A DNA stretch of 64,000 bases from Escherichia coli (GCF_009931435.1 NZ_CP043414.1), one strand, 5' to 3'. Positions 27,790 to 60,761 are shown, counted from the first letter of the stretch. Made by a program: numbers and translations. The notes: generated from the letters alone by a model not told the origin.

Positions 27790-27981
<192 letters not shown>

Positions 27982-31638: not shown

Positions 31639-31731
31639 AAAAAAAACCGGATGCGAGGCATCCGGTTGAAATAGGGGTAAACAGACATTCAGAAATGAAT
31701 GACGGTAATAAATAAAGTTAATGATGATAGC
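31639..31731 (-). ncRNA. micF: micF antisense sRNA, divergent from ompC
   Basis: Minus strand reads gctatcatcattaactttatttattaccgtcattcatttctgaatgtc..., ending in the hairpin ccggatgcctcgcatccgg plus a T8 run. Confidence 0.85.
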
Positions 31732-31884
31732 GGGAGATATTCTAGTTGCGAGTGAAGGTTTTGTTTTGACATTCAGTGCTGTCAAATACTTAAGAATAAG
31801 TTATTGATTTTAACCTTGAATTATTATTGCTTGATGTTAGGTGCTTATTTCGCCATTCCGCAATAATCTTAAAAAGTTCCCTTG

Positions 31885-39714: not shown

Positions 39715-39952
39715 CCACATCCGGCATGTTATGCCGGATGTGGCGTATGCTGATAAGACGCGCCAGCGTCGCATCAGTCAACCGGCTTGGGCGTTAGATG
39801 TCGGATGCGGCGTGACCGCCTTATCCGACCTACGGGGTGGAGCACTTCACAGCGGTGTAGGCCTGATAAGACGCGCCAGCGTCGCATCAGTCAACCGGCT
39901 TGGGCGTTAGATGTCGGATGCGGCGTGACCGCCTTATCCGACCTACGGGGTG
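39715..39952. repeat. REP/BIME cluster between mqo and eco: 29-bp perfect hairpin then two tandem ~90-bp copies (113-bp period)
   Basis: ccacatccggcat-gtt-atgccggatgtgg; then tgataagacgcgccagcgtcgcatcagtcaaccggcttgggcgttagatgtcggatgcggcgtgaccgccttatccgacctacggggtg at 39751 and again at 39864. Confidence 0.85.
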
Positions 39953-40458: not shown

Positions 40459-40717
40459 TTTTTTGCTTTCCTTCTTCATTTATAGGTTTTCACCGATGAT
40501 GTCGCTGAAGGTTAACATATTCATCAGATTTATTAATTTGCTTTATGAATAACTTAAAGAACATTCAGACAATTTTACCTGCTCTTTTAGTGTTAAATTC
40601 TGACGAGAGAACAAACCAGTAGAAATATCTCTGGTGAATTAATCGCTATATAAATATTTTTATAACCATTTGAAATGTGAGCAAAAGCCCGTTTTTGCCA
40701 CGCTTCCCGCCACTCTT

Positions 40718-40752
40718 TTGATCCTGCTACAGGTTTTACCTCGATCGGGGTA
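40718..40752 (+). promoter_or_regulatory. napF control region: FNR-like site (TTGAT-N4-CTACA) and NarP/NarL 7-2-7 site (TACCTCG-at-CGGGGTA)
   Basis: Half-site pattern seen in sequence; the two centres are 20 bp apart, as I recall for the -64.5 and -44.5 sites of napF. Confidence 0.55.
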
Positions 40753-40865
40753 TGCATCTTTGACACATCCTTTAATATCTTAGCGGCTATAAAAATGGCT
40801 TATTAATTATGCGGTTTATTTGGTCGCTCTCAATTTTCAGAGCGCGTTAATGATGGAAGGTCAAT

Positions 40866-41360
40866 GTGAAGATTGATGCATCCCGTCGGGGCATACTCAC
40901 TGGTCGCTGGCGCAAAGCCAGTAACGGTATCCGTCCGCCCTGGTCCGGTGATGAATCTCATTTTCTGACCCATTGCACCCGCTGTGACGCCTGTATTAAT
41001 GCTTGTGAAAACAACATTCTGCAACGCGGCGCGGGGGGCTATCCGAGCGTTAATTTCAAAAATAACGAGTGCAGCTTCTGTTATGCCTGCGCGCAAGCTT
41101 GCCCCGAATCGCTATTTTCTCCGCGCCACACCAGGGCCTGGGATTTGCAGTTCACCATTGGGGACGCGTGCCTGGCGTATCAGTCAGTTGAATGCCGTCG
41201 CTGTCAGGATAGCTGTGAGCCAATGGCAATTATCTTTCGCCCGACGCTCTCCGGGATCTACCAGCCGCAACTTAATAGCCAACTTTGCAACGGATGTGGA
41301 GCATGTGCAGCCAGCTGTCCGGTATCAGCCATAACTGCGGAGTATCTCCATGCACACTAA
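40866..41360 (+). CDS. napF: Ferredoxin-type protein NapF
   Basis: 164-aa ORF, GTG start; several CxxCxxCxxxCP 4Fe-4S motifs. Confidence 0.93.
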   Translation: MKIDASRRGILTGRWRKASNGIRPPWSGDESHFLTHCTRCDACINACENNILQRGAGGYPSVNFKNNECSFCYACAQACPESLFSPRHTRAWDLQFTIGDACLAYQSVECRRCQDSCEPMAIIFRPTLSGIYQPQLNSQLCNGCGACAASCPVSAITAEYLHAH

Positions 41361-41613
41361 CTGGCAAGTTTGCAGCCTGGTCGTGCAGGCCAAAAGCGAA
41401 CGAATTTCAGACATCAGCACCCAACTGAACGCCTTTCCCGGCTGTGAAGTCGCTGTCAGCGACGCGCCGAGCGGTCAGTTGATTGTGGTGGTGGAAGCAG
41501 AAGACAGCGAAACGCTGATCCAAACCATTGAGTCAGTACGCAACGTAGAGGGCGTGCTGGCGGTGTCGCTGGTTTATCACCAGCAGGAAGAGCAAGGTGA
41601 GGAAACACCATGA
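41350..41613 (+). CDS. napD: NapA chaperone NapD
   Basis: 87-aa ORF overlapping the napF stop and the napA start. Confidence 0.93.
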
Positions 41614-44096
41614 AACTCAGTCGTCGTAGCTTTATGAAAGCTAACGCCGTTGCGGCCGCTGCGGCGGCTGCCGGTCTCAGCGTGCCGGGCGTTGCCCGCG
41701 CCGTTGTTGGTCAGCAGGAAGCCATTAAATGGGATAAAGCACCATGCCGTTTCTGCGGTACTGGTTGTGGCGTTCTGGTCGGAACGCAGCAGGGGCGTGT
41801 GGTGGCCTGTCAGGGCGACCCGGACGCACCGGTTAACCGTGGCCTGAACTGCATTAAGGGCTATTTCCTGCCCAAAATCATGTACGGTAAAGACCGTTTG
41901 ACGCAGCCGCTTCTGCGTATGAAAAACGGTAAATATGACAAAGAAGGCGAGTTCACCCCAATCACCTGGGATCAAGCCTTCGATGTGATGGAAGAAAAAT
42001 TCAAAACTGCCCTGAAAGAAAAAGGGCCGGAATCGATCGGTATGTTCGGTTCTGGTCAGTGGACTATCTGGGAAGGTTATGCCGCGTCCAAGCTGTTCAA
42101 AGCGGGCTTCCGTTCGAACAACATCGACCCGAACGCGCGTCACTGTATGGCGTCGGCGGTAGTTGGCTTTATGCGTACCTTTGGTATGGATGAGCCGATG
42201 GGCTGCTATGACGACATCGAACAGGCTGACGCGTTTGTGCTGTGGGGCGCTAACATGGCGGAGATGCACCCGATTCTCTGGTCGCGCATCACCAACCGTC
42301 GTCTCTCTAACCAGAACGTCACCGTGGCGGTGCTTTCTACCTACCAGCATCGTAGCTTCGAGCTGGCGGATAACGGCATCATCTTTACGCCACAGTCTGA
42401 CCTGGTGATCCTGAACTACATCGCCAACTATATCATTCAAAACAACGCGATAAATCAGGACTTCTTTAGCAAACACGTTAACCTGCGCAAAGGGGCGACG
42501 GACATCGGCTACGGTTTACGTCCGACCCATCCGCTGGAAAAAGCAGCGAAGAATCCAGGTTCTGACGCTTCCGAGCCGATGAGCTTTGAAGATTACAAAG
42601 CCTTCGTTGCTGAGTATACGCTGGAAAAAACCGCTGAAATGACCGGCGTGCCGAAAGACCAGTTAGAACAACTGGCGCAGCTGTATGCCGATCCGAACAA
42701 GAAAGTCATCTCCTACTGGACGATGGGCTTCAACCAGCATACCCGTGGCGTGTGGGCCAACAACCTGGTCTACAACCTGCACCTGCTGACTGGCAAAATT
42801 TCTCAGCCGGGTTGCGGTCCGTTCTCCCTGACCGGGCAGCCTTCCGCGTGCGGTACTGCGCGAGAAGTGGGCACCTTTGCTCACCGTCTGCCTGCGGACA
42901 TGGTGGTGACCAATGAGAAACACCGTGATATCTGCGAGAAGAAGTGGAATATCCCGAGCGGCACCATTCCGGCGAAAATCGGCCTGCACGCGGTGGCACA
43001 GGACCGTGCGCTGAAAGACGGCAAACTGAATGTTTACTGGACCATGTGTACCAACAACATGCAAGCCGGGCCGAACATTAATGAAGAGCGTATGCCGGGC
43101 TGGCGCGATCCGCGCAACTTTATCATCGTTTCCGATCCGTATCCGACAGTCAGTGCGCTGGCAGCCGACTTGATCCTGCCGACCGCAATGTGGGTAGAAA
43201 AAGAGGGTGCTTACGGTAACGCCGAACGCCGTACTCAATTCTGGCGTCAGCAGGTACAGGCACCGGGCGAAGCGAAATCGGATCTCTGGCAGTTAGTTCA
43301 GTTCTCCCGCCGCTTCAAAACTGAAGAAGTGTGGCCGGAAGAGTTGCTGGCGAAGAAACCGGAACTGCGTGGCAAAACGCTGTATGAGGTTCTGTATGCC
43401 ACCCCGGAAGTGAGCAAATTCCCGGTATCCGAACTGGCAGAAGATCAGTTGAACGATGAATCCCGCGAGTTGGGCTTCTATCTGCAAAAAGGGCTGTTCG
43501 AAGAGTATGCATGGTTTGGTCGCGGTCACGGTCACGATCTCGCGCCGTTCGATGACTACCACAAAGCGCGCGGTCTGCGCTGGCCGGTGGTTAACGGTAA
43601 AGAAACGCAGTGGCGTTATAGCGAAGGTAACGACCCGTACGTGAAAGCGGGTGAAGGCTACAAGTTCTACGGTAAACCGGATGGCAAAGCGGTGATCTTC
43701 GCACTGCCGTTCGAACCGGCGGCGGAAGCACCGGATGAAGAGTACGATCTGTGGCTCTCTACCGGGCGTGTCCTGGAGCACTGGCACACCGGCAGTATGA
43801 CTCGCCGTGTACCGGAACTGCACCGTGCCTTCCCGGAAGCGGTCCTGTTTATTCATCCGCTGGATGCGAAAGCGCGCGATCTGCGTCGTGGCGACAAAGT
43901 GAAAGTGGTTTCTCGCCGTGGCGAAGTCATCTCGATTGTTGAAACGCGCGGTCGTAACCGTCCGCCGCAGGGCCTGGTGTATATGCCGTTCTTCGACGCC
44001 GCACAGCTGGTTAACAAACTGACGCTGGATGCGACCGATCCGCTCTCGAAAGAGACGGACTTCAAGAAGTGTGCGGTCAAACTGGAGAAGGTGTAA
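41610..44096 (+). CDS. napA: Periplasmic nitrate reductase catalytic subunit NapA
   Basis: 828-aa ORF; twin-arginine signal SRRSFMK; N-terminal Cys cluster CRFCGTGCG. Confidence 0.97.
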
Positions 44097-44102
44097 GCCA
44101 TT

Positions 44103-44798
44103 ATGTCCCGGTCAGCGAAACCTCAAAATGGTCGCCGCCGCTTTCTGCGCGATGTCGTTCGCACAGCTGGCGGGTTGGCTGCCGTGGGTGTGGCGCTGGG
44201 GTTACAACAGCAAACCGCACGCGCATCTGGTGTGCGGTTGCGCCCGCCCGGAGCCATAAACGAGAACGCCTTTGCCAGTGCCTGCGTACGTTGCGGTCAG
44301 TGTGTTCAGGCTTGCCCTTACGACACCTTAAAACTGGCGACACTGGCCTCTGGCCTGTCGGCAGGTACGCCGTACTTTGTCGCGCGGGATATTCCTTGCG
44401 AAATGTGTGAGGACATTCCGTGCGCCAAAGTGTGCCCGAGCGGTGCGCTGGATCGAGAGATCGAATCGATCGACGACGCGCGGATGGGGCTGGCGGTGCT
44501 GGTGGATCAGGAGAACTGCCTCAACTTTCAGGGGCTGCGCTGCGATGTTTGCTATCGCGAATGCCCGAAAATTGATGAGGCAATCACCCTGGAGCTGGAG
44601 CGTAACACGCGTACCGGTAAGCACGCCCGTTTTCTGCCGACGGTTCACAGCGACGCCTGTACCGGCTGCGGTAAGTGCGAAAAAGTGTGCGTGCTGGAAC
44701 AACCCGCAATCAAGGTGTTACCGCTGTCACTGGCGAAAGGGGAGTTAGGTCACCATTACCGCTTCGGCTGGCTGGAGGGGAACAATGGCAAATCGTAA
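44103..44798 (+). CDS. napG: Ferredoxin-type protein NapG
   Basis: 231-aa ORF; Tat-like N-terminus RRRFLR; 4Fe-4S Cys motifs. Confidence 0.95.
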
Positions 44799-45648
44799 AC
44801 GTGACGCCGGGCGCGAGGCGCTGGAGAAAAAAGGCTGGTGGCGCAGTCACCGTTGGCTGGTGCTGCGTCGCCTTTGTCAGTTCTTCGTGCTGGGGATGTT
44901 TTTGAGCGGTCCGTGGTTTGGTGTGTGGATCTTGCACGGCAACTACAGCAGTAGCCTGTTATTCGACACCGTTCCACTGACCGATCCGCTGATGACGCTG
45001 CAAAGTCTTGCCAGCGGTCATCTGCCTGCCACGGTAGCGCTGACTGGTGCGGTGATTATCACCGTGCTCTACGCCCTGGCAGGAAAGCGATTATTTTGCA
45101 GCTGGGTCTGCCCGCTGAACCCGATTACCGACTTAGCAAATTGGTTACGCAGACGATTTGACCTCAATCAGTCTGCGACGATCCCTCGCCACATTCGCTA
45201 CGTGCTGTTGGTGATCATTCTGGTGGGATCGGCCTTAACTGGCACGCTCATCTGGGAATGGATCAACCCCGTTTCCCTGATGGGGCGTAGCCTGGTAATG
45301 GGCTTCGGCAGCGGCGCGCTGCTTATTCTCGCGCTGTTTTTATTTGATCTACTGGTCGTTGAACACGGCTGGTGCGGGCACATTTGTCCGGTTGGTGCAC
45401 TGTATGGCGTGCTGGGTAGTAAAGGTGTGATTACCGTTGCGGCCACCGATCGGCAGAAATGTAACCGCTGTATGGATTGTTTTCATGTTTGCCCGGAACC
45501 GCATGTGCTACGTGCCCCGGTGCTGGATGAACAAAGCCCGGTGCAGGTCACCAGCCGCGATTGCATGACGTGCGGTCGCTGCGTGGATGTCTGTTCTGAG
45601 GATGTATTTACAATAACTACACGATGGAGTTCGGGAGCGAAATCATGA
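44785..45648 (+). CDS. napH: Membrane ferredoxin-type protein NapH
   Basis: 287-aa ORF with TM segments and C-terminal CxxCxxC motifs. Confidence 0.95.
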
Positions 45649-46094
45649 AAAGCCATGACCTGAAGAAAGCGCTGTGTCAATGGACGGCGATGCTGGCCCT
45701 GGTGGTAAGCGGCGCGGTTTGGGCGGCTAATGGCGTCGATTTTAGCCAGTCGCCGGAAGTATCCGGGACGCAGGAAGGGGCCATTCGGATGCCAAAAGAG
45801 CAGGATCGGATGCCGCTGAACTATGTGAATCAGCCGCCAATGATCCCGCATAGCGTTGAAGGTTATCAGGTAACGACCAATACCAACCGCTGCTTGCAGT
45901 GCCACGGTGTCGAAAGCTATCGCACCACTGGCGCGCCGCGCATCAGTCCTACTCACTTTATGGACAGCGACGGCAAAGTGGGCGCAGAAGTGGCTCCGCG
46001 TCGTTATTTCTGTCTGCAATGTCACGTACCGCAGGCCGATACCGCGCCAATCGTGGGGAATACCTTTACCCCATCAAAAGGTTACGGGAAATAA
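45645..46094 (+). CDS. napB: Dihaem cytochrome c NapB
   Basis: Start MKSHDLKK (149 aa); two CxxCH motifs (CLQCH twice); ATG overlaps the napH stop. Confidence 0.95.
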   Translation: MKSHDLKKALCQWTAMLALVVSGAVWAANGVDFSQSPEVSGTQEGAIRMPKEQDRMPLNYVNQPPMIPHSVEGYQVTTNTNRCLQCHGVESYRTTGAPRISPTHFMDSDGKVGAEVAPRRYFCLQCHVPQADTAPIVGNTFTPSKGYGK

Positions 46095-46103
46095 GAGGTT
46101 ATT

Positions 46104-46706
46104 ATGGGAAATTCTGACCGTAAGCCTGGTCTGATTAAGCGCCTGTGGAAATGGTGGCGTACCCCCAGCCGTCTGGCACTGGGGACGCTGCTGTTGATCG
46201 GCTTTGTTGGCGGTATCGTTTTCTGGGGCGGCTTTAACACCGGGATGGAAAAAGCTAACACTGAAGAGTTTTGCATTAGCTGCCACGAAATGCGTAACAC
46301 GGTGTATCAGGAATACATGGATTCCGTGCACTACAACAACCGTAGCGGCGTCCGTGCGACCTGTCCGGATTGTCACGTTCCGCACGAGTTTGTGCCGAAG
46401 ATGATACGCAAGCTCAAAGCAAGTAAAGAGCTGTATGGTAAAATTTTTGGCGTTATTGACACGCCGCAGAAATTTGAAGCTCATCGCCTGACGATGGCAC
46501 AGAATGAGTGGCGGCGCATGAAGGACAATAACTCGCAGGAGTGTCGTAACTGTCACAACTTCGAGTATATGGATACAACCGCCCAGAAATCAGTTGCCGC
46601 TAAGATGCACGACCAGGCGGTGAAAGATGGGCAAACCTGTATTGATTGCCATAAAGGGATAGCGCACAAGCTGCCCGATATGCGCGAAGTCGAGCCAGGT
46701 TTTTAA
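46104..46706 (+). CDS. napC: Tetrahaem cytochrome c NapC
   Basis: 200-aa ORF; four CxxCH motifs (CISCH, CPDCH, CRNCH, CIDCH). Confidence 0.95.
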   Translation: MGNSDRKPGLIKRLWKWWRTPSRLALGTLLLIGFVGGIVFWGGFNTGMEKANTEEFCISCHEMRNTVYQEYMDSVHYNNRSGVRATCPDCHVPHEFVPKMIRKLKASKELYGKIFGVIDTPQKFEAHRLTMAQNEWRRMKDNNSQECRNCHNFEYMDTTAQKSVAAKMHDQAVKDGQTCIDCHKGIAHKLPDMREVEPGF

Positions 46707-46718
46707 CAGGGTTATTGC

Positions 46719-47342
46719 GTGGGTATGCTTGAAGCCAGAGAGTTACTTTGCGAGCGGGATGAACGAACCTTATTTAGTGGTTTGTCATTTACGCTGAACG
46801 CAGGCGAGTGGGTACAAATCACCGGCAGCAACGGCGCGGGGAAGACAACGCTTCTCCGCTTGCTGACGGGGTTGTCTCGCCCTGACGCGGGTGACGTTCT
46901 CTGGCAAGGGCAGCCCTTGCATCAGGTACGCGACAGCTACCATCAAAACCTGTTATGGATAGGCCATCAGCCGGGGATCAAAACCCGGCTGACGGCGTTA
47001 GAAAATCTGCACTTTTATCATCGCGATGGCGATACCGCACAATGTCTGGAAGCCCTGGCGCAGGCCGGGCTTGCCGGATTCGAAGATATTCCGGTAAATC
47101 AACTTTCTGCCGGGCAACAACGCCGCGTCGCTTTAGCGCGTCTGTGGCTGACCCGTGCCACGTTATGGATCCTCGACGAGCCTTTTACCGCGATTGACGT
47201 CAACGGCGTCGATCGTCTGACCCAGCGTATGGCGCAGCATACGGAGCAGGGGGGGATTGTGATTCTGACTACCCACCAGCCGCTCAACGTTGCTGAAAGT
47301 AAAATTCGCCGCATTTCTCTGACGCATACTAGGGGCGCATGA
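46719..47342 (+). CDS. ccmA: Haem exporter ATPase CcmA
   Basis: 207-aa ORF (GTG start); Walker [13 protein letters not shown] signature LSAGQQRR. Confidence 0.93.
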
Positions 47343-48001
47343 TGTTCTGGCGCATTTTCCGTCTTGAGCTGCGCGTGGCGTTTCGCCATAGCGCCGAAAT
47401 CGCTAACCCGCTGTGGTTCTTCCTGATTGTTATTACCCTTTTTCCGCTCAGTATCGGTCCGGAGCCGCAACTGCTGGCGCGTATTGCGCCGGGCATTATC
47501 TGGGTTGCCGCGCTGCTTTCATCCTTGCTGGCACTCGAGCGACTGTTCCGTGACGATTTGCAGGACGGCAGTCTTGAACAATTGATGTTGTTGCCGTTAC
47601 CCTTGCCCGCCGTTGTGCTGGCGAAGGTGATGGCGCACTGGATGGTAACCGGTCTGCCGTTACTCATCCTTTCGCCTCTGGTAGCAATGCTACTGGGAAT
47701 GGATGTTTATGGCTGGCAAGTGATGGCGCTGACGCTGCTGCTGGGAACCCCAACGCTTGGTTTTCTCGGTGCGCCGGGCGTGGCGCTGACAGTGGGACTT
47801 AAGCGCGGTGGTGTGCTGCTCAGCATACTAGTGTTACCGCTGACTATCCCATTACTCATCTTTGCCACCGCCGCGATGGACGCGGCTTCTATGCATTTGC
47901 CCGTTGATGGGTATCTGGCAATTTTAGGCGCGTTGCTGGCAGGCACCGCGACATTAAGTCCTTTTGCGACGGCGGCAGCGTTACGAATCAGCATTCAATA
48001 A
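47339..48001 (+). CDS. ccmB: Haem exporter permease CcmB
   Basis: 220-aa membrane protein; start overlaps the ccmA stop. Confidence 0.95.
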
Positions 48002-48042
48002 CGCTGGATTACTGATTTTTGTTCGAGTCTGGTATCGAAACT

Positions 48043-48780
48043 ATGTGGAAAACACTGCATCAACTGGCGATCCCACCACGGCTGTATCAAATCTGTGGCT
48101 GGTTTATACCGTGGCTGGCAATTGCCAGTGTGGTCGTGCTTACCGTCGGCTGGATCTGGGGATTCGGCTTTGCTCCGGCTGATTATCAGCAGGGAAATAG
48201 CTACCGCATTATCTACCTGCATGTGCCTGCGGCGATCTGGTCTATGGGCATTTATGCATCAATGGCGGTGGCGGCGTTTATTGGCCTGGTCTGGCAGATG
48301 AAAATGGCCAACCTGGCGGTGGCGGCGATGGCCCCCATTGGTGCCGTGTTTACCTTTATTGCCCTGGTTACCGGCTCTGCATGGGGAAAACCGATGTGGG
48401 GCACCTGGTGGGTATGGGATGCACGCCTGACTTCTGAACTGGTGCTGCTGTTTTTGTATGTGGGTGTGATTGCCCTGTGGCACGCCTTCGACGATCGCCG
48501 TCTGGCAGGCCGTGCGGCAGGTATTCTGGTGCTGATTGGCGTGGTGAACCTGCCGATTATTCATTACTCCGTGGAGTGGTGGAACACCCTGCATCAAGGA
48601 TCAACGCGGATGCAGCAAAGTATTGATCCGGCAATGCGTTCGCCGCTGCGCTGGTCGATTTTTGGTTTCCTGCTGCTGTCTGCCACGCTGACGCTGATGC
48701 GGATGCGTAATTTGATTTTGCTGATGGAAAAACGCCGTCCGTGGGTGAGTGAACTGATACTGAAAAGAGGCCGTAAATGA
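48043..48780 (+). CDS. ccmC: Haem exporter / haem lyase component CcmC
   Basis: Start MWKTLHQL (245 aa); WWD motif WGTWWVWDARL. Confidence 0.93.
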   Translation: MWKTLHQLAIPPRLYQICGWFIPWLAIASVVVLTVGWIWGFGFAPADYQQGNSYRIIYLHVPAAIWSMGIYASMAVAAFIGLVWQMKMANLAVAAMAPIGAVFTFIALVTGSAWGKPMWGTWWVWDARLTSELVLLFLYVGVIALWHAFDDRRLAGRAAGILVLIGVVNLPIIHYSVEWWNTLHQGSTRMQQSIDPAMRSPLRWSIFGFLLLSATLTLMRMRNLILLMEKRRPWVSELILKRGRK

Positions 48781-48986
48781 CCCCTGCATTTGCTTCCTGG
48801 AATGAATTTTTCGCAATGGGCGGTTACGCCTTTTTTGTCTGGCTGGCGGTGGTGATGACCGTTATTCCGCTGGTGGCTTTGGTCGTGCATTCGGTGATGC
48901 AGCATCGCGCAATTCTGCGTGGCGTGGCGCAACAGCGGGCGCGTGAGGCGCGTTTACGTGCTGCGCAACAGCAGGAGGCTGCATGA
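48777..48986 (+). CDS. ccmD: CcmD
   Basis: 69-aa single-TM protein; overlaps the ccmC stop and the ccmE start. Confidence 0.9.
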
Positions 48987-49462
48987 ATATTCGCCGTAAA
49001 AACCGCTTGTGGATTGCCTGTGCCGTGCTGGCGGGGCTGGCACTGACTATCGGCCTGGTGTTGTATGCGCTGCGCTCGAATATCGATCTTTTTTATACGC
49101 CGGGGGAAATTCTCTACGGCAAGCGTGAAACTCAACAGATGCCGGAAGTCGGTCAGCGTCTGCGCGTTGGCGGGATGGTGATGCCGGGTAGTGTGCAGCG
49201 CGATCCCAATTCGCTGAAAGTAACGTTCACCATTTACGACGCTGAAGGTTCAGTAGATGTCTCTTACGAAGGCATTTTGCCGGATCTGTTCCGTGAAGGG
49301 CAGGGCGTAGTGGTGCAGGGCGAACTGGAAAAAGGTAATCATATCCTCGCGAAAGAAGTACTGGCGAAACACGATGAAAACTACACGCCGCCAGAAGTCG
49401 AGAAAGCGATGGAAGCTAATCACCGTCGCCCGGCGAGTGTTTATAAGGACCCAGCATCATGA
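48983..49462 (+). CDS. ccmE: Haem chaperone CcmE
   Basis: 159-aa ORF; N-terminal membrane anchor. Confidence 0.95.
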
Positions 49463-51402
49463 TGCCAGAAATTGGTAACGGACTGCTGTGCCTGGCGCTA
49501 GGAATTGCGCTGTTGCTGTCCGTGTATCCGCTATGGGGCGTGGCGCGCGGGGATGCGCGCATGATGGCTTCTTCGCGCTTGTTTGCATGGCTGCTATTTA
49601 TGTCTGTGGCTGGCGCATTTCTGGTGCTGGTCAATGCTTTCGTGGTGAATGACTTTACTGTCACCTATGTTGCCAGCAACTCCAATACCCAGCTTCCGGT
49701 GTGGTATCGCGTAGCGGCAACCTGGGGTGCGCATGAAGGCTCGCTACTGCTGTGGGTGCTGCTGATGAGCGGCTGGACATTTGCGGTGGCGATTTTTAGT
49801 CAGCGTATTCCGCTGGATATTGTGGCCCGTGTACTGGCGATAATGGGGATGGTCAGTGTCGGCTTTTTGCTGTTCATTCTCTTTACCTCTAACCCGTTCT
49901 CACGCACGTTGCCGAACTTCCCGATTGAAGGGCGCGATCTTAACCCGCTGTTGCAGGATCCAGGGCTGATCTTCCATCCGCCTCTGCTCTATATGGGGTA
50001 CGTTGGTTTCTCGGTGGCGTTTGCTTTTGCCATTGCTTCTTTGCTGAGTGGGCGTCTGGACAGCACTTACGCACGCTTTACCCGTCCGTGGACGCTGGCG
50101 GCGTGGATCTTCCTGACGCTCGGCATTGTGCTCGGTTCCGCATGGGCCTATTACGAACTCGGCTGGGGCGGCTGGTGGTTCTGGGATCCGGTAGAAAACG
50201 CCTCATTTATGCCGTGGTTGGTGGGTACTGCGCTGATGCACTCGCTGGCGGTCACTGAACAGCGTGCCAGCTTCAAAGCGTGGACATTACTGCTGGCAAT
50301 CAGTGCCTTCTCGCTGTGTCTGCTGGGGACTTTCCTTGTGCGTTCCGGCGTGCTGGTATCAGTACACGCGTTTGCGTCTGATCCGGCGCGCGGTATGTTT
50401 ATCCTCGCTTTTATGGTGCTGGTGATTGGCGGTTCGCTGCTGCTGTTTGCCGCGCGTGGACACAAAGTTCGCTCACGCGTAAACAATGCGCTGTGGTCGC
50501 GGGAATCTCTGCTGTTAGCGAACAACGTTTTGCTGGTCGCCGCAATGCTGGTGGTATTGCTGGGGACGCTGCTGCCGCTGGTGCATAAGCAACTTGGGCT
50601 GGGCAGTATTTCGATAGGTGAACCGTTCTTCAACACTATGTTTACCTGGCTGATGGTGCCGTTTGCGCTACTGCTTGGTGTCGGTCCACTGGTGCGCTGG
50701 GGGCGCGATCGCCCACGTAAAATCCGCAATTTATTGATTATCGCCTTCATCTCTACGCTGGTGCTGTCTCTGCTGTTGCCGTGGCTGTTCGAAAGTAAAG
50801 TTGTGGCGATGACGGTGCTCGGCCTGGCTATGGCCTGCTGGATTGCAGTGCTGGCGATTGCGGAAGCTGCGCTGCGTATTTCACGCGGCACGAAAACCAC
50901 CTTTAGTTATTGGGGCATGGTGGCGGCTCACCTGGGGCTGGCGGTAACAATTGTTGGTATTGCCTTTAGCCAGAACTATAGCGTTGAGCGTGATGTGCGC
51001 ATGAAGTCCGGTGATAGCGTCGATATTCATGAATATCGCTTCACCTTCCGTGATGTCAAAGAAGTGACTGGTCCGAACTGGCGTGGTGGTGTGGCGACTA
51101 TCGGCGTAACGCGAGAGGGCAAGCCGGAAACGGTGCTGTATGCGGAAAAACGTTATTACAACACTGCCGGGTCGATGATGACCGAAGCGGCGATTGACGG
51201 CGGCATCACGCGTGACCTGTACGCAGCTCTCGGTGAAGAGTTGGAAAACGGCGCGTGGGCTGTGCGTCTTTACTACAAACCGTTTGTTCGCTGGATTTGG
51301 GCGGGCGGGCTGATGATGGCGTTGGGCGGGCTGCTGTGCCTGTTTGATCCTCGCTATCGTAAGCGCGTAAGCCCGCAAAAAACTGCGCCGGAGGCTGTAT
51401 GA
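49459..51402 (+). CDS. ccmF: Cytochrome c haem lyase subunit CcmF
   Basis: 647-aa polytopic protein; WWD domain [12 protein letters not shown]. Confidence 0.96.
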
Positions 51403-51956
51403 AGCGCAAAGTATTGTTAATTCCTTTGATTATCTTCCTGGCGATTGCCGCGGCGTTGCTGTGGCAGCTGGCACGTAATGCCGAAGGGGATGATCCGACC
51501 AATCTGGAATCGGCGCTCATTGGCAAGCCGGTGCCAAAGTTTCGCCTCGAATCACTGGACAACCCGGGGCAGTTTTATCAGGCGGATGTGCTGACTCAGG
51601 GCAAACCAGTGCTGCTTAACGTCTGGGCGACCTGGTGTCCGACCTGCCGTGCGGAACATCAATATCTGAATCAGCTTTCTGCGCAGGGCATCCGCGTAGT
51701 TGGCATGAACTATAAAGACGATCGCCAGAAAGCGATCAGCTGGCTGAAAGAGCTGGGCAATCCTTACGCGTTAAGCCTGTTTGATGGCGACGGCATGTTA
51801 GGGCTGGATCTCGGTGTCTATGGCGCGCCAGAAACGTTCCTCATCGACGGCAACGGCATCATTCGCTATCGCCATGCGGGCGATCTCAATCCTCGCGTCT
51901 GGGAAGAAGAGATCAAGCCGCTGTGGGAGAAATACAGTAAGGAGGCCGCACAATGA
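51399..51956 (+). CDS. ccmG: Thiol:disulfide interchange protein CcmG/DsbE
   Basis: 185-aa ORF; thioredoxin motif WCPTC. Confidence 0.95.
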   Translation: MKRKVLLIPLIIFLAIAAALLWQLARNAEGDDPTNLESALIGKPVPKFRLESLDNPGQFYQADVLTQGKPVLLNVWATWCPTCRAEHQYLNQLSAQGIRVVGMNYKDDRQKAISWLKELGNPYALSLFDGDGMLGLDLGVYGAPETFLIDGNGIIRYRHAGDLNPRVWEEEIKPLWEKYSKEAAQ

Positions 51957-53005
51957 GGTTTTTATTGGGCGTGCTGATGCTGATGATCTCCGGCTCAGCG
52001 CTGGCGACCATCGACGTGTTGCAGTTTAAAGATGAAGCACAGGAACAACAGTTTCGTCAGCTTACTGAAGAACTGCGCTGCCCGAAATGCCAGAACAACA
52101 GCATTGCCGATTCCAACTCGATGATTGCCACCGACCTGCGCCAGAAAGTGTATGAACTGATGCAGGAAGGTAAAAGTAAGAAAGAGATTGTCGATTATAT
52201 GGTGGCGCGTTACGGCAACTTCGTCACTTACGACCCGCCGTTAACGCCGCTGACCGTTCTGCTGTGGGTGCTACCGGTGGTGGCTATTGGCATTGGCGGT
52301 TGGGTCATTTACGCCCGCTCGCGGCGTCGGGTACGCGTGGTGCCGGAAGCGTTTCCTGAACAAAGCGTGCCGGAAGGTAAGCGTGCCGGATATGTTGTTT
52401 ATCTGCCGGGTATTGTGGTGGCGTTAATTGTGGCTGGCGTCAGCTACTACCAGACCGGCAATTATCAGCAGGTGAAAATTTGGCAGCAGGCCACGGCACA
52501 GGCGCCGGCGTTATTGGACAGGGCGCTGGATCCGAAAGCTGAGCCGCTCAACGAAGAAGAGATGTCCCGCCTTGCGCTGGGGATGCGTACTCAACTGCAA
52601 AAAAATCCGGGAGATATAGAAGGCTGGATTATGTTGGGCCGCGTTGGCATGGCGCTGGGTAACGCCAGTATTGCCACCGATGCATACGCCACTGCGTATC
52701 GCCTCGATCCGAAGAACAGCGATGCTGCACTCGGATACGCTGAAGCGTTGACACGTTCATCTGATCCCAACGACAACCGCCTGGGTGGTGAACTGCTACG
52801 CCAGTTAGTAAGAAGCGACCACAGCAATATCCGTGTGTTAAGCATGTATGCGTTCAATGCCTTTGAGCAGCAGCGATTTGGCGAAGCCGTTGCCGCGTGG
52901 GAGATGATGTTGAAACTCTTACCTGCCAACGATACTCGCCGTGCGGTGATTGAACGCAGTATCGCGCAGGCGATGCAACACTTATCACCACAGGAGAGTA
53001 AATAA
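51953..53005 (+). CDS. ccmH: Cytochrome c maturation protein CcmH
   Basis: 350-aa ORF; LRCPKC motif; C-terminal TPR-like region. Confidence 0.95.
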   Translation: MRFLLGVLMLMISGSALATIDVLQFKDEAQEQQFRQLTEELRCPKCQNNSIADSNSMIATDLRQKVYELMQEGKSKKEIVDYMVARYGNFVTYDPPLTPLTVLLWVLPVVAIGIGGWVIYARSRRRVRVVPEAFPEQSVPEGKRAGYVVYLPGIVVALIVAGVSYYQTGNYQQVKIWQQATAQAPALLDRALDPKAEPLNEEEMSRLALGMRTQLQKNPGDIEGWIMLGRVGMALGNASIATDAYATAYRLDPKNSDAALGYAEALTRSSDPNDNRLGGELLRQLVRSDHSNIRVLSMYAFNAFEQQRFGEAVAAWEMMLKLLPANDTRRAVIERSIAQAMQHLSPQESK

Positions 53006-53064
53006 GAACAAGCCCGATGGTGATGCCATCGGGCCAGACTGATGGCAAAGTGCGCTTTGTTTAT

Positions 53065-53163
53065 GCCAGATGCGGCGTAAACGCCTTATTCAGCCTACAA
53101 AATCGTGCGAACTCAATACATTGCTCGATCCGCGTAGGCCTGATAAGCGTAGCGCATCAGGCA
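53065..53163. repeat. REP pair (BIME) downstream of ccmH
   Basis: gccagatgcggcgtaaacgccttattcagcctac and inverted gtaggcctgataagcgtagcgcatcaggc. Confidence 0.8.
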
Positions 53164-53186
53164 GTTTTGCGTTTGTCATCAATATC

Positions 53187-53219
53187 AGCCCGAGGGTAAA
53201 TCCATCGGGCTATTTTTTT
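53187..53219 (+). terminator. Probable rho-independent terminator closing the nap-ccm operon
   Basis: Stem agcccga/tcgggct followed by a T-run; overlaps the narP stop codon. Confidence 0.55.
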
Positions 53220-53865
53220 ATTGTGCCCCACGTTGTTGCAGGAACAGAATGGTGGCCGCCACGCGTGAGCGGACATTGAGTTTACGCAGCAGATTGCGAA
53301 TGTGTACTTTTACTGTCTGCTCGGAAATATTCAACACCGAGGCAATCTGTTTATTTGACAGTCCCTGTGCCAGCTCGTGCAGAACATCCAGCTCGCGCTC
53401 CGTCAGCACGCTGAAGGGATCTTCTTCCGCGCCAAACATTTCACGTTCACGTAAGTACTGATTGACGCGTTCGCTAAAGACTTTGCTGCCTTTCGCTCCG
53501 GCACGAATCGCTTCCAACAACACTTCCGGATCGCTGTCTTTCAACAGATAACCGTCTGCGCCTGCGTCTATCAGCGCAAACACATCGCTGGAGGCATCTG
53601 ATACGGTCAGGATAATAATTTGCGCGGTAACGCCATCCCTGCGCAAGGCATTGAGGGTATCCAGGCCACTCATACCTTTCATATTGAGATCCAGCAAGAT
53701 CACGTCGATATCCAGTCTATTCGCCAGATCGATAGCACTCGCGCCGTCGCCCGCTTCGGCGACCACTTCAAAGCCAGGATCAAGCTCCAGTAACTGACGA
53801 ACACCGCGTCGCATAAGTGGATGATCATCCACAATCATCACCTGAAAAGGCGTTGCTTCAGGCAT
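53218..53865 (-). CDS. narP: Nitrate/nitrite response regulator NarP
   Basis: Start MPEATPFQVMIVDDHP (215 aa) inside the 225-aa ORF; receiver plus LuxR-type HTH. Confidence 0.95.
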   Translation of the reverse strand: MPEATPFQVMIVDDHPLMRRGVRQLLELDPGFEVVAEAGDGASAIDLANRLDIDVILLDLNMKGMSGLDTLNALRRDGVTAQIIILTVSDASSDVFALIDAGADGYLLKDSDPEVLLEAIRAGAKGSKVFSERVNQYLREREMFGAEEDPFSVLTERELDVLHELAQGLSNKQIASVLNISEQTVKVHIRNLLRKLNVRSRVAATILFLQQRGAQ

Positions 53866-54184: not shown

Positions 54185-56779
54185 ATGCATCAATCTGGTT
54201 CTGTTTCTCTTTGTCGTTCCGCAATATCTGTTCTGGTGGCTACAGCGTTATATTCACCCATAGCATTGGCATCAACTGTTGAGTATGGTGAGACAGTTGA
54301 TGGTGTTGTCCTGGAAAAAGATATCCAGCTGGTTTATGGGACCGCCAATAATACGAAAATCAATCCTGGCGGAGAACAGCATATAAAAGAATTTGGTGTA
54401 AGTAATAATACTGAAATTAACGGAGGGTATCAGTACATTGAAATGAATGGCACCGCAGAATACTCAGTATTAAATGACGGTTATCAAATTGTTCAAATGG
54501 GTGGCGCGGCAAACCAGACTACCCTCAATAATGGTGTGCTACAGGTTTATGGCGCAGCGAATGATACTACCATTAAAGGCGGGCGCTTAATTATTGAAAA
54601 AGATGGCATTGCCATCTTCGCCGTTATCGAAAAGGGAGGACTACTGGAGGTTAAAGATGGCGGATTGGCATTTGCGGTAGATCAAAAAGCAGGCGGTGCG
54701 ATTAAAACAACCACGCGGGCCATGGAGGTATTCGGAACAAACCGTCTCGGTCAGTTTGATATCAAAGATGGGGTTGCTAACAATATGCTGTTGGAAAACG
54801 GCGGAAGTTTGCGGGTTGAAGAGAATGACTTCGCTTATAATACCACTGTGGATAGTGGTGGTTTACTGGAGGTTATGGATGGCGGGACTGCAACTGGCGT
54901 TGACAAAAAAGCAGGCGGAAAATTAATTGTTTCAACGAATGCGCTGGAAGTGAGTGGTACAAACAGTAAAGGCCAATTTAGCATAAAAGATGGCGTGTCT
55001 AAAAATTATGAACTGGATGATGGTTCCGGGCTAATTGTTATGGAGGGCACTCAGGCAATTGACACTATCCTTGATGAGCATGCAACCATGCAATCGTTGG
55101 GAAGAGATACTGGTACGAGAGTGCAGGCACATGCAGTTTATGATCTTGGTCGGTCAGTGCAGAATGGAAGCATAAAATATTCCTCAAATGCCATATCTGA
55201 AAATATGGTTATCGATAATGGTCGCGCTAATGTCTGGACTGGCACAATGGTTAACGTAACAGTCAGAGGAAATGAGGGCATTATTGATGCAATGGCGCTA
55301 GAATTAAATTTTTATACACCGGCTACATTTTTAGGTGACTTGGTGGTTTCTGATGGTGCATCTTTAAGAACGCATGGCGCAGTGGATACCAGTAAAGCAG
55401 ATGTTTCTATCGAAGAGAGTTTTTGGACTATTATTGCCGATATCAATAATATAAACCAAAACACCCGTCTCAATTTAGCAAACCTGGTGATGTCAGACGG
55501 AACTGTCGTTATGATGGCTGAGCCAGTGACTCGTTCATCTGTGACGGCAAGTGCGGAAAATTTCACTACGTTGACCACCAATACCCTATCGGGAAACGGC
55601 AATTTTTATATGCGTACCGATATGGCTAATCATCAGAGCGATCAGCTCAACGTGACCGGTCAGGCAACAGGTGATTTCAAAATATTTGTGACGGACACGG
55701 GGGCCAGCCCGGCAGCAGGTGATAGCCTTACACTGGTAACAACGGGCGGCGGTGATGCTGCATTTACCTTGGGCAATGCCGGAGGCGTTGTTGATATCGG
55801 TACGTATGAATATACCTTGCTGGATAATGGCAACCATAGCTGGAGTCTGGCAGAGAATCGCGCGCAAATTACCCCTTCAACCACTGATGTGCTGAATATG
55901 GCGGCAGCGCAACCGCTGGTATTTGATGCAGAACTGGACACCGTGCGTGAGCGTCTTGGTAGCGTAAAAGGCGTTAATTACGATACGGCGATGTGGAGTT
56001 CGGCAATTAACACCCGCAACAACGTAACCACTGATGCGGGAGCTGGCTTTGAGCAAACATTGACGGGGCTGACGCTCGGTATCGATAGCCGTTTCTCCCG
56101 TGAAGAAAGCAGCACAATTCGTGGCTTATTCTTTGGTTACTCTCATTCTGATATTGGTTTTGATCGCGGCGGTAAAGGTAATATCGATAGCTATACTCTG
56201 GGTGCTTATGCCGGTTGGGAGCATCAAAACGGTGCCTATGTTGACGGGGTGGTGAAAGTTGACCGTTTTGCCAACACCATCCATGGCAAGATGAGTAATG
56301 GGGCAACAGCGTTTGGCGATTACAATAGTAACGGCGCGGGTGCTCATGTCGAGAGCGGGTTCCGTTGGGGGGAGGGGCTGTGGAATGTAAGGCCTTATCT
56401 GTCCTTTACCGGCTTTACCACTGATGGTCAGGACTATACGTTATCAAACGGCATGCACGCGGATGTGGGAAATACCCGCATATTACGCGCTGAAGCGGGA
56501 ACGGCGGTAAGCTATCACATGGACCTGCAAAACGGTACGACGCTGGAACCCTGGCTGAAAGCCGCCGTGCGTCAGGAATACGCCGATTCTAACCAAGTGA
56601 AAGTTAATGACGACGGCAAATTTAATAATGACGTGGCTGGAACCCGTGGCGTTTATCAGGCTGGGATAAGGTCATCGTTTACCCCGACGTTAAGCGGTCA
56701 TTTGTCTGTCAGCTATGGCAATGGCGCGGGGGTAGAATCACCGTGGAATACCCAGGCGGGTGTGGTCTGGACGTTCTGA
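54185..56779 (+). CDS. yejO: Autotransporter YejO (passenger with repeated beta-helix motifs, C-terminal beta-barrel ending in F); intact here
   Basis: 864-aa uninterrupted ORF; signal-like N-terminus; C-terminus ...GVVWTF. Confidence 0.88.
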   Translation: MHQSGSVSLCRSAISVLVATALYSPIALASTVEYGETVDGVVLEKDIQLVYGTANNTKINPGGEQHIKEFGVSNNTEINGGYQYIEMNGTAEYSVLNDGYQIVQMGGAANQTTLNNGVLQVYGAANDTTIKGGRLIIEKDGIAIFAVIEKGGLLEVKDGGLAFAVDQKAGGAIKTTTRAMEVFGTNRLGQFDIKDGVANNMLLENGGSLRVEENDFAYNTTVDSGGLLEVMDGGTATGVDKKAGGKLIVSTNALEVSGTNSKGQFSIKDGVSKNYELDDGSGLIVMEGTQAIDTILDEHATMQSLGRDTGTRVQAHAVYDLGRSVQNGSIKYSSNAISENMVIDNGRANVWTGTMVNVTVRGNEGIIDAMALELNFYTPATFLGDLVVSDGASLRTHGAVDTSKADVSIEESFWTIIADINNINQNTRLNLANLVMSDGTVVMMAEPVTRSSVTASAENFTTLTTNTLSGNGNFYMRTDMANHQSDQLNVTGQATGDFKIFVTDTGASPAAGDSLTLVTTGGGDAAFTLGNAGGVVDIGTYEYTLLDNGNHSWSLAENRAQITPSTTDVLNMAAAQPLVFDAELDTVRERLGSVKGVNYDTAMWSSAINTRNNVTTDAGAGFEQTLTGLTLGIDSRFSREESSTIRGLFFGYSHSDIGFDRGGKGNIDSYTLGAYAGWEHQNGAYVDGVVKVDRFANTIHGKMSNGATAFGDYNSNGAGAHVESGFRWGEGLWNVRPYLSFTGFTTDGQDYTLSNGMHADVGNTRILRAEAGTAVSYHMDLQNGTTLEPWLKAAVRQEYADSNQVKVNDDGKFNNDVAGTRGVYQAGIRSSFTPTLSGHLSVSYGNGAGVESPWNTQAGVVWTF

Positions 56780-56880: not shown

Positions 56881-56957
56881 TGGTCGGCACGAGAGGATTT
56901 GAACCTCCGACCCCCGACACCCCATGACGGTGCGCTACCAGGCTGCGCTACGTGCCG
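56881..56957 (-). tRNA. proL: tRNA-Pro (anticodon GGG)
   Basis: Minus strand reads CGGCACGTAGCGCAGCCTGGTAGCGCACCGTCATGGGGTGTCGGGGGTCGGAGGTTCAAATCCTCTCGTGCCGACCA: 7-bp acceptor stem, T-loop TTCAAAT, anticodon loop with GGG, encoded CCA. Confidence 0.92.

Positions 56958-60368: not shown

Positions 60369-60761
<393 letters not shown>

Follow-up and report, generated by a model that had tools for sequence, protein, structure and literature searches.

The 64,000-nucleotide stretch of DNA analysed here (the window) almost certainly comes from an Escherichia coli-like strain and carries its chromosomal aeg-46.5 locus, the fifteen-gene series napFDAGHBC-ccmABCDEFGH, which judging by its sequence would be activated anaerobically by FNR and NarP. 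This locus is already known, with studies going back to the 1990s, and the present copy adds a strain-level variant only. It is an ordinary locus, because it represents a textbook E. coli operon that is complete and has the known oxygen-, nitrate- and molybdate-responsive promoter. A listing of open reading frames (ORFs) gave fifteen intact ORFs in an unbroken series on the + strand between positions 40866 and 53005, and their order and coordinates agree with the RefSeq annotations of two close strains and with K-12 MG1655:

40866-41360, + strand: napF, ferredoxin-type protein of 164 amino acids with a GTG start; identical to the K-12 protein, TIGR00402 score 248 bits (cut-off 102)
41350-41613, + strand: napD, NapA signal-peptide chaperone, 87 amino acids; NF007840 aligned over 1-87 of 87
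41610-44096, + strand: napA, molybdoenzyme catalytic subunit, 828 amino acids; TIGR01706 score 1655 bits (cut-off 930)
44103-44798, + strand: napG, ferredoxin-type protein, 231 amino acids; equivalog model passed
44785-45648, + strand: napH, membrane quinol dehydrogenase ferredoxin subunit, 287 amino acids; equivalog model passed
45645-46094, + strand: napB, dihaem cytochrome c with two CXXCH motifs, 149 amino acids
46104-46706, + strand: napC, tetrahaem quinol dehydrogenase with four CXXCH motifs, 200 amino acids
46719-47342, + strand: ccmA, ABC ATPase, 207 amino acids, with a GTG start
47339-48001, + strand: ccmB, ABC permease, 220 amino acids
48043-48780, + strand: ccmC, haem-handling WWD protein, 245 amino acids
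48777-48986, + strand: ccmD, 69 amino acids
48983-49462, + strand: ccmE, haem chaperone with an HDENY motif, 159 amino acids
49459-51402, + strand: ccmF, haem lyase subunit with a WWD motif, 647 amino acids
51399-51956, + strand: ccmG (dsbE), thioredoxin-like CPTC protein, 185 amino acids
51953-53005, + strand: ccmH, CcmH domain fused to a CcmI-like (CcmH/CycH) TPR domain, 350 amino acids

In a gene-by-gene comparison with K-12, all fifteen genes were equal in length, start codon and stop codon (including the GTG starts of napF and ccmA) and free of internal stops. The two copies differ at 368 of 12,131 coding nucleotide positions (3.0%) and at 11 of 4,027 residues, all of these amino-acid substitutions being conservative, and the products are 98.6-100% identical to the K-12 proteins. 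No pseudogenisation, frameshift or insertion sequence was detected within the fifteen-gene operon. The gene content and order had been proposed in an earlier sequence-only reading, which named a frameshift against reference proteins as its own refutation test; as this comparison revealed none, the proposal stands, and the accompanying statement that nothing looks anomalous is correct as well.

The identity of the products is also seen at the family level. Fourteen of them passed the NCBIfam cut-off of their own family, mostly with equivalog models (NF008609 and NF007906 for NapB and NapC) and with subfamily models for CcmC and CcmF. For CcmH, the only NCBIfam model returned was that of NrfF, below its cut-off, and its membership therefore rests on Pfam matches above the cut-offs (PF03918 and PF23914) and on identity to K-12 CcmH at 348 of 350 residues. 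A motif search found all cofactor motifs expected for the Nap and Ccm proteins. NapA, which differs from its K-12 counterpart by one amino acid, has the Tat signal SRRSFMK at residues 4-10 and the CX2CX3C 4Fe-4S motif CRFCGTGC at residue 46, while NapF, NapG and NapH contain ferredoxin or iron-sulfur cysteine clusters. Together with the haem motifs of NapB and NapC, the accessory genes napF, D, G and H and the gene order, these features are those of an enterobacterial napFDAGHBC-type Nap system, for which periplasmic nitrate reductase activity is predicted. Likewise, the eight ccm genes carry the signature motifs of a System I CcmABCDEFGH set (Walker A and ABC signature in CcmA, WWD in CcmC and CcmF, the HDENY histidine in CcmE, and CXXC in both CcmG and CcmH).

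A megablast with 40500-53300 as query recovered the locus, with a coverage of at least 80%, from 5416 of 5426 complete E. coli genomes, and its neighbours are the same as in K-12, with mqo, eco and yojO upstream and the convergent narP, yejO and then, further on, proL downstream. The closest known system is aeg-46.5 of K-12 itself (b2208-b2194), which shares the fifteen genes, their order, lengths, starts and stops, the geometry of the junctions and the flanking genes, as well as ModE, FNR and NarP/NarL sites with equal spacing.

Exact distances between the genes place an ATGA (-4) overlap at eight of the fourteen junctions (napD/A, napH/B, ccmA/B, ccmC/D, ccmD/E, ccmE/F, ccmF/G and ccmG/H) and longer overlaps at napF/D (11 nucleotides) and napG/H (14 nucleotides), giving an overlap of some kind at ten of the fourteen. 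The napF/D overlap, ccATGcacacTAA, contains the ATG at 41350 and the TAA at 41358-41360, and the start of napD is backed by a full-length profile alignment, that of napH by an alignment from residue 2. The sequence-only reading had the eight ATGA overlaps right, but it took napF/D for one of them and omitted napG/H. Its description of nearly every junction as ATGA or 4-bp is overstated, because the genes are separated by gaps at napA/G (6 nucleotides), napB/C (9), napC/ccmA (12) and ccmB/C (41). Two other start positions were considered and rejected: 45624 for napB and a TTG at 48019 for ccmC. The starts annotated in K-12 and RefSeq and the NCBIfam alignments (full-length in the case of NapB) support 45645 and 48043.

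The -4 class is enriched in the operon compared with neighbouring K-12 genes (8 of 14 against 3 of 24, Fisher p = 0.0055), the background being same-strand pairs in about 80 kb, counted by eye from annotation tables. Among prokaryotes in general, no spacing motif and no coupling geometry is more common than the -4 overlap, and the eight ATGA junctions have the geometry of translationally coupled pairs. Native E. coli ATGA pairs have been tested systematically once; four of the five pairs proved to be coupled, with Shine-Dalgarno motifs aiding reinitiation instead of substituting for it (PMC6728339). Translational coupling at the nap-ccm junctions, which the sequence-only reading had called tight, is thus plausible. 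Ribosomes would reinitiate on the next cistron across the eight ATGA overlaps, the two longer overlaps and the four short gaps, and such reinitiation would help to hold subunit ratios fixed inside functional modules.

Several observations weigh against this reading. At 11 of the 15 starts, the pairing energy with the anti-Shine-Dalgarno sequence is at most -5.8 kcal/mol, and at 9 of the 15 it attains the 5th percentile of the internal background (-6.2 kcal/mol). Particularly strong Shine-Dalgarno sequences precede the overlapped starts of ccmH (-12.1 kcal/mol), ccmE (-10.3), napH (-9.8) and ccmG (-9.5), and weak pairing is confined to ccmA (-3.3), ccmC (-3.0) and, less so, ccmB (-5.2). Because most downstream starts have a strong Shine-Dalgarno of their own, de novo initiation could account for expression without any coupling. 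In addition, the fifth of the native pairs tested, bioBF, has an ATGA overlap and is uncoupled (PMC6728339). The overlaps might then be neutral by-products of genome compaction and of the ease with which ATGA evolves, with the genes translated independently and coupling having no functional role. We regard this explanation as somewhat unlikely: against it stand the coupling of the other four native pairs, with the Shine-Dalgarno aiding rather than replacing reinitiation, and the finding that the overlaps keep to particular junctions and appear again in distant bacteria.

The latter finding comes from a comparison of ccm junctions in other bacteria. One genome per species was scanned for the CcmE motif AKHDENY, giving at least 120 loci (L006-L125), mostly from Proteobacteria and including many metagenome-assembled genomes. 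Ccm homologues were identified by BLASTP of stop-to-stop ORFs, and starts were assigned heuristically, by proximity to the aligned N-terminus. Among the matches listed, to which all of the following counts refer, -4 overlaps were found as follows:

ccmA/B: 19-24 of 48
ccmB/C: 3 of 58
ccmC/D: 5-6 of 15, plus 31 of 66 with an inferred ccmD
ccmD/E: 10 of 18, plus 39 of 65 with an inferred ccmD
ccmE/F: 53-54 of 105
ccmF/G: 27-29 of 58
ccmG/H: 20-25 of 48
ccmH/I: 10 of 17

With nearest-start calls pooled with the inferred ccmD, the -4 share amounts to 40% at A/B, 46% at C/D, 59% at D/E, 51% at E/F, 47% at F/G and 42% at G/H, and to 5% at B/C. The overlap occurs in roughly 35-60% of cases at every ccm junction but ccmB/C, where 45 of 58 junctions are gaps of more than 15 nucleotides (p from 1e-5 to 2e-10 for B/C against A/B, E/F, F/G and G/H). 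That ccmB/C is hardly ever overlapped likewise argues against overlaps as neutral by-products. These counts ignore kinship among the genomes, depend on heuristic starts and come from the first rows of the scan, all of which weakens what can be drawn from them in favour of coupling. Since the same pattern is seen in these loci, the junction pattern of the window, its single long gap included, is the usual one for system I. Clusters of other Proteobacteria also have the gene order ccmABC(D)EFGH(I); they show -4 overlaps at A/B, C/D, D/E, E/F, F/G and G/H, and at B/C a gap. They differ from the window in that, in most species sampled, ccm is unfused to nap and CcmH and CcmI are separate genes, whereas here a single 350-residue CcmH bears both the CcmH and the CcmI-like domains, the fused form typical of E. 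coli.

The position of ccm away from nap in most other bacteria sampled also bears on the extent of the operon. It would fit a model in which nap and ccm are effectively separate operons, with ccmABCDEFGH transcribed mainly from its own promoter inside napC and the fifteen-gene label being misleading. Consistent with this, ccmA follows a 12-nucleotide gap and has a GTG start and a weak Shine-Dalgarno, and napC contains an extended -10-like sequence:

46436-46444, + strand: TGGTAAAAT, within napC, candidate internal promoter of ccmA, about 275 nucleotides upstream of the ccmA GTG

A ccmA promoter of this type inside napC has reportedly been described for K-12 by Tanapongpipat et al. in 1998. 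The pattern TGnTAnnnT, however, is not enriched across the window; it occurs twice on the + strand in the operon, once upstream of ccmA and once at 51012 in ccmF. The promoter and terminator scan revealed no terminator-like hairpin with a T-run between napC and ccmA, in the literature nap and ccm form a single operon induced under anaerobic conditions, and an internal promoter would add to read-through from napF rather than exclude it. Two effectively separate operons are therefore improbable, and a single fifteen-gene transcription unit is the preferred reading.

The region upstream of napF, from which this unit would be transcribed, contains the following elements, with positions relative to the putative start site:

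40644-40666, + strand: site for ModE, the molybdate-responsive activator, CGCTATATA-N8-TATAAC; centre 40655.5 on a wider span of 40642-40669 (-133.5)
40718-40731, + strand: FNR-like site TTGATcctgCTACA (half-sites TTGAT and CTACA around cctg); centre 40724.5 (-64.5), with the same bases in K-12
40737-40752, + strand: NarP/NarL 7-2-7 site TACCTCGATCGGGGTA (heptamers TACCTCG and CGGGGTA around AT); centre 40744.5 (-44.5)
40789, + strand: putative napF P1 transcription start, placed by setting the 7-2-7 centre at -44.5, with a 77-nucleotide leader to the napF GTG

In the primary papers the FNR site is reported to lie at -64.5 and, by McNicholas and Gunsalus in 2002, the ModE site at -133.5. The centres of the FNR and 7-2-7 sites are 20 bp apart, as the sequence-only reading had noted, and those of the ModE and 7-2-7 sites 89 bp; that reading identified the FNR and NarP/NarL sites correctly and overlooked the ModE site. 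The spacings are those of the known napF promoter. Except for a few polymorphisms, the whole control region corresponds to that of K-12 in every base, which bears out the comparison with the known promoter that had been suggested as a check; the FNR site is identical and the 7-2-7 site differs by a single base. The ModE site is kept in K-12 and in two other strains except for one base in the central spacer, at 40657. This base is T in the window; K-12 has A and the two other strains have G.

The literature, which includes reporter data from K-12, describes napF as activated by FNR and NarP and antagonised by NarL, with input from ModE and IscR. The 7-2-7 site of napF has been placed at -40 to -49 (PMC4549865) and ModE activates nap (PMC8139620). 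An FNR peak assigned to napF in chromatin immunoprecipitation sequencing of K-12 lies about 13 bp from the orthologous site according to our own conversion between genome versions. On this basis, transcription would start from a promoter of class I type some 77 nucleotides before napF, and the promoter would be activated anaerobically by FNR together with phospho-NarP bound to the 7-2-7 site. Phospho-NarL would act as an antagonist by competing for the same 7-2-7 site, and ModE bound far upstream would boost the promoter. For the present strain, regulator binding and FNR/NarP-dependent transcription are predicted, with indirect support from the K-12 FNR peak and reporter data.

Pattern scans, the other check suggested for these sites, speak less in favour of this picture. 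The 7-2-7 pattern has 3 matches in the window against 2.5 expected, which is no better than chance, and the FNR pattern with 3 mismatches has 341 against 241 expected and is not distinctive; the left half-site of the FNR site is perfect, the right one poor, with 2 of 5 positions matching. A scan for generic sigma-70 promoters gave no match on the + strand of the region. No such match is expected because the promoter is activator-dependent, and the scan lends no independent support. With counts equal to or barely above shuffled expectation, consensus scans for FNR, NarL/NarP and the extended -10 were rejected as stand-alone evidence, and the FNR and NarP/NarL sites are identified because they are identical to the characterised K-12 promoter, not through the significance of a pattern. 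The ModE pattern alone is rare, with one match in the window where 0.08 would be expected.

The one difference in the 7-2-7 site is a C-to-T substitution at 40741 in the left heptamer. That it would alter regulation in this lineage, for example through NarP versus NarL preference or a weaker nitrate induction, is very improbable, even though it breaks the perfect 16-bp palindrome of K-12 (TACCCCGATCGGGGTA) and is a minority allele (444 of 5420 E. coli genomes, 8%, by 100% matches to a 60-nucleotide query), since the position conforms to Y (C or T) in the consensus TACYYMT and the allele is borne by successful lineages, O157:H7 and O145 among them.

The control region is also crossed by an antisense ORF. 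The gene yojO (40593-40757, - strand, 54 amino acids), annotated as uncharacterised in K-12 and RefSeq, runs through it with its first codons spanning the NarP/NarL and FNR sites and the ORF continuing through the ModE site. Its product has no Pfam match.

At the 3' end, the 212-nucleotide spacer between ccmH and narP contains two hairpins that flank a pair of repetitive extragenic palindromic (REP) elements:

53012-53034: proximal hairpin with a U-rich tail on the - strand only, -18.9 kcal/mol
53187-53211, + strand: distal hairpin followed by seven U to 53219, -15.2 kcal/mol, abutting the narP stop codon; candidate operon terminator

The distal hairpin is likely the intrinsic terminator of nap-ccm, as its U7 tail lies on the + strand and the U-rich tail of the proximal hairpin only on the - strand; the latter would serve narP. 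A generic terminator scan flagged only the hairpin next to ccmH, on the - strand, and missed the distal one because of one stem mismatch; folding recovered it. The sequence-only reading overlooked this 3' end of the operon. In K-12 the distal hairpin is kept with five T instead of seven, which, next to the one 7-2-7 base and the one ModE spacer base, distinguishes the two copies.

The two terminator-like hairpins are crossed, the one adjacent to ccmH having its tail on the narP strand and the one adjacent to narP having its U7 tail on the ccm strand. A corresponding arrangement was looked for in Citrobacter. In Citrobacter werkmanii, napGHBC-ccmABCDEFGH is likewise followed by the convergent narP and the proteins are 80-94% identical. 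The convergent genes are kept and the details of hairpins and U-tracts are not: its spacer of about 100 nucleotides has two REP-like hairpins and no U-tracts, compared with 212 nucleotides and two terminator-like hairpins flanking the REP pair in the window.

The inverted REP pair of the spacer, a bacterial interspersed mosaic element (BIME), occupies 53053-53170. It contains an unoccupied ATCAGGCCTAC on the - strand (53144-53134), which we take to be a target of IS621. In RMDEC465, and apparently in three other strains listed, IS621 is inserted exactly at this site, with the junction at 53136/53137; IS621 is absent from the ccmH-narP spacer of this stretch.

Elsewhere, the window is collinear with K-12 from the nrdA side to radD and about 95.3-96.9% identical to it. 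In two 12-kb stretches that were tested, identity to the complete E. coli genomes did not go beyond 98.7-99.1%, and the lineage of the window seems unrepresented among the 5,426 complete genomes. The mqo-eco spacer holds two tandem naRNA4 (CssrE / REP325-type) units at 39748-39943 (- strand), a spacer that in K-12 has more naRNA4 copies, seen as staggered BLAST matches offset by 113 bp, and a further naRNA4 unit lies at 27902-27978. Two genes are intact here and disrupted in K-12:

54185-56779, + strand: yejO, autotransporter of 864 amino acids with a low G+C of 0.36-0.47; split by IS5 in K-12
10399-15018, + strand: yfaS, alpha-2-macroglobulin family, 1539 amino acids; a pseudogene in K-12

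Three RNA features were located with Rfam/ARAGORN at the positions expected from K-12:

31639-31732, - strand: MicF small RNA beside ompC
56881-56957, - strand: tRNA-Pro(GGG), proL
60675-60700, - strand: L25 ribosomal-protein leader upstream of rplY

The locus matters little as a new finding, and its value is that of a control. Operon and promoter were recognisable from raw sequence alone, and such a reading slips at points like two junction calls and the statistical weakness of consensus-site matches. Two small leads result from the analysis, namely the conserved ccmB/ccmC exception, a comparative by-product, and the crossed hairpins beside narP. Perhaps the ccm junctions reflect a conserved translational design at the level of the module, a view suggested because in distant bacteria the overlaps recur at all junctions but ccmB/ccmC and because weak Shine-Dalgarno sequences occur only at the heads ccmA and ccmC, and perhaps the crossed nap-ccm and narP hairpins of Escherichia serve an antisense or transcriptional-interference feedback; these readings are speculative and quite improbable. 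If the former were true, the design would set subunit stoichiometry and divide the cluster into ccmAB and ccmCDEFGH. If the latter were true, the operon transcript would end at the narP stop codon and the narP transcript at the ccmH stop codon, giving the regulator gene and the operon that it activates complementary 3' ends of about 200 nucleotides.

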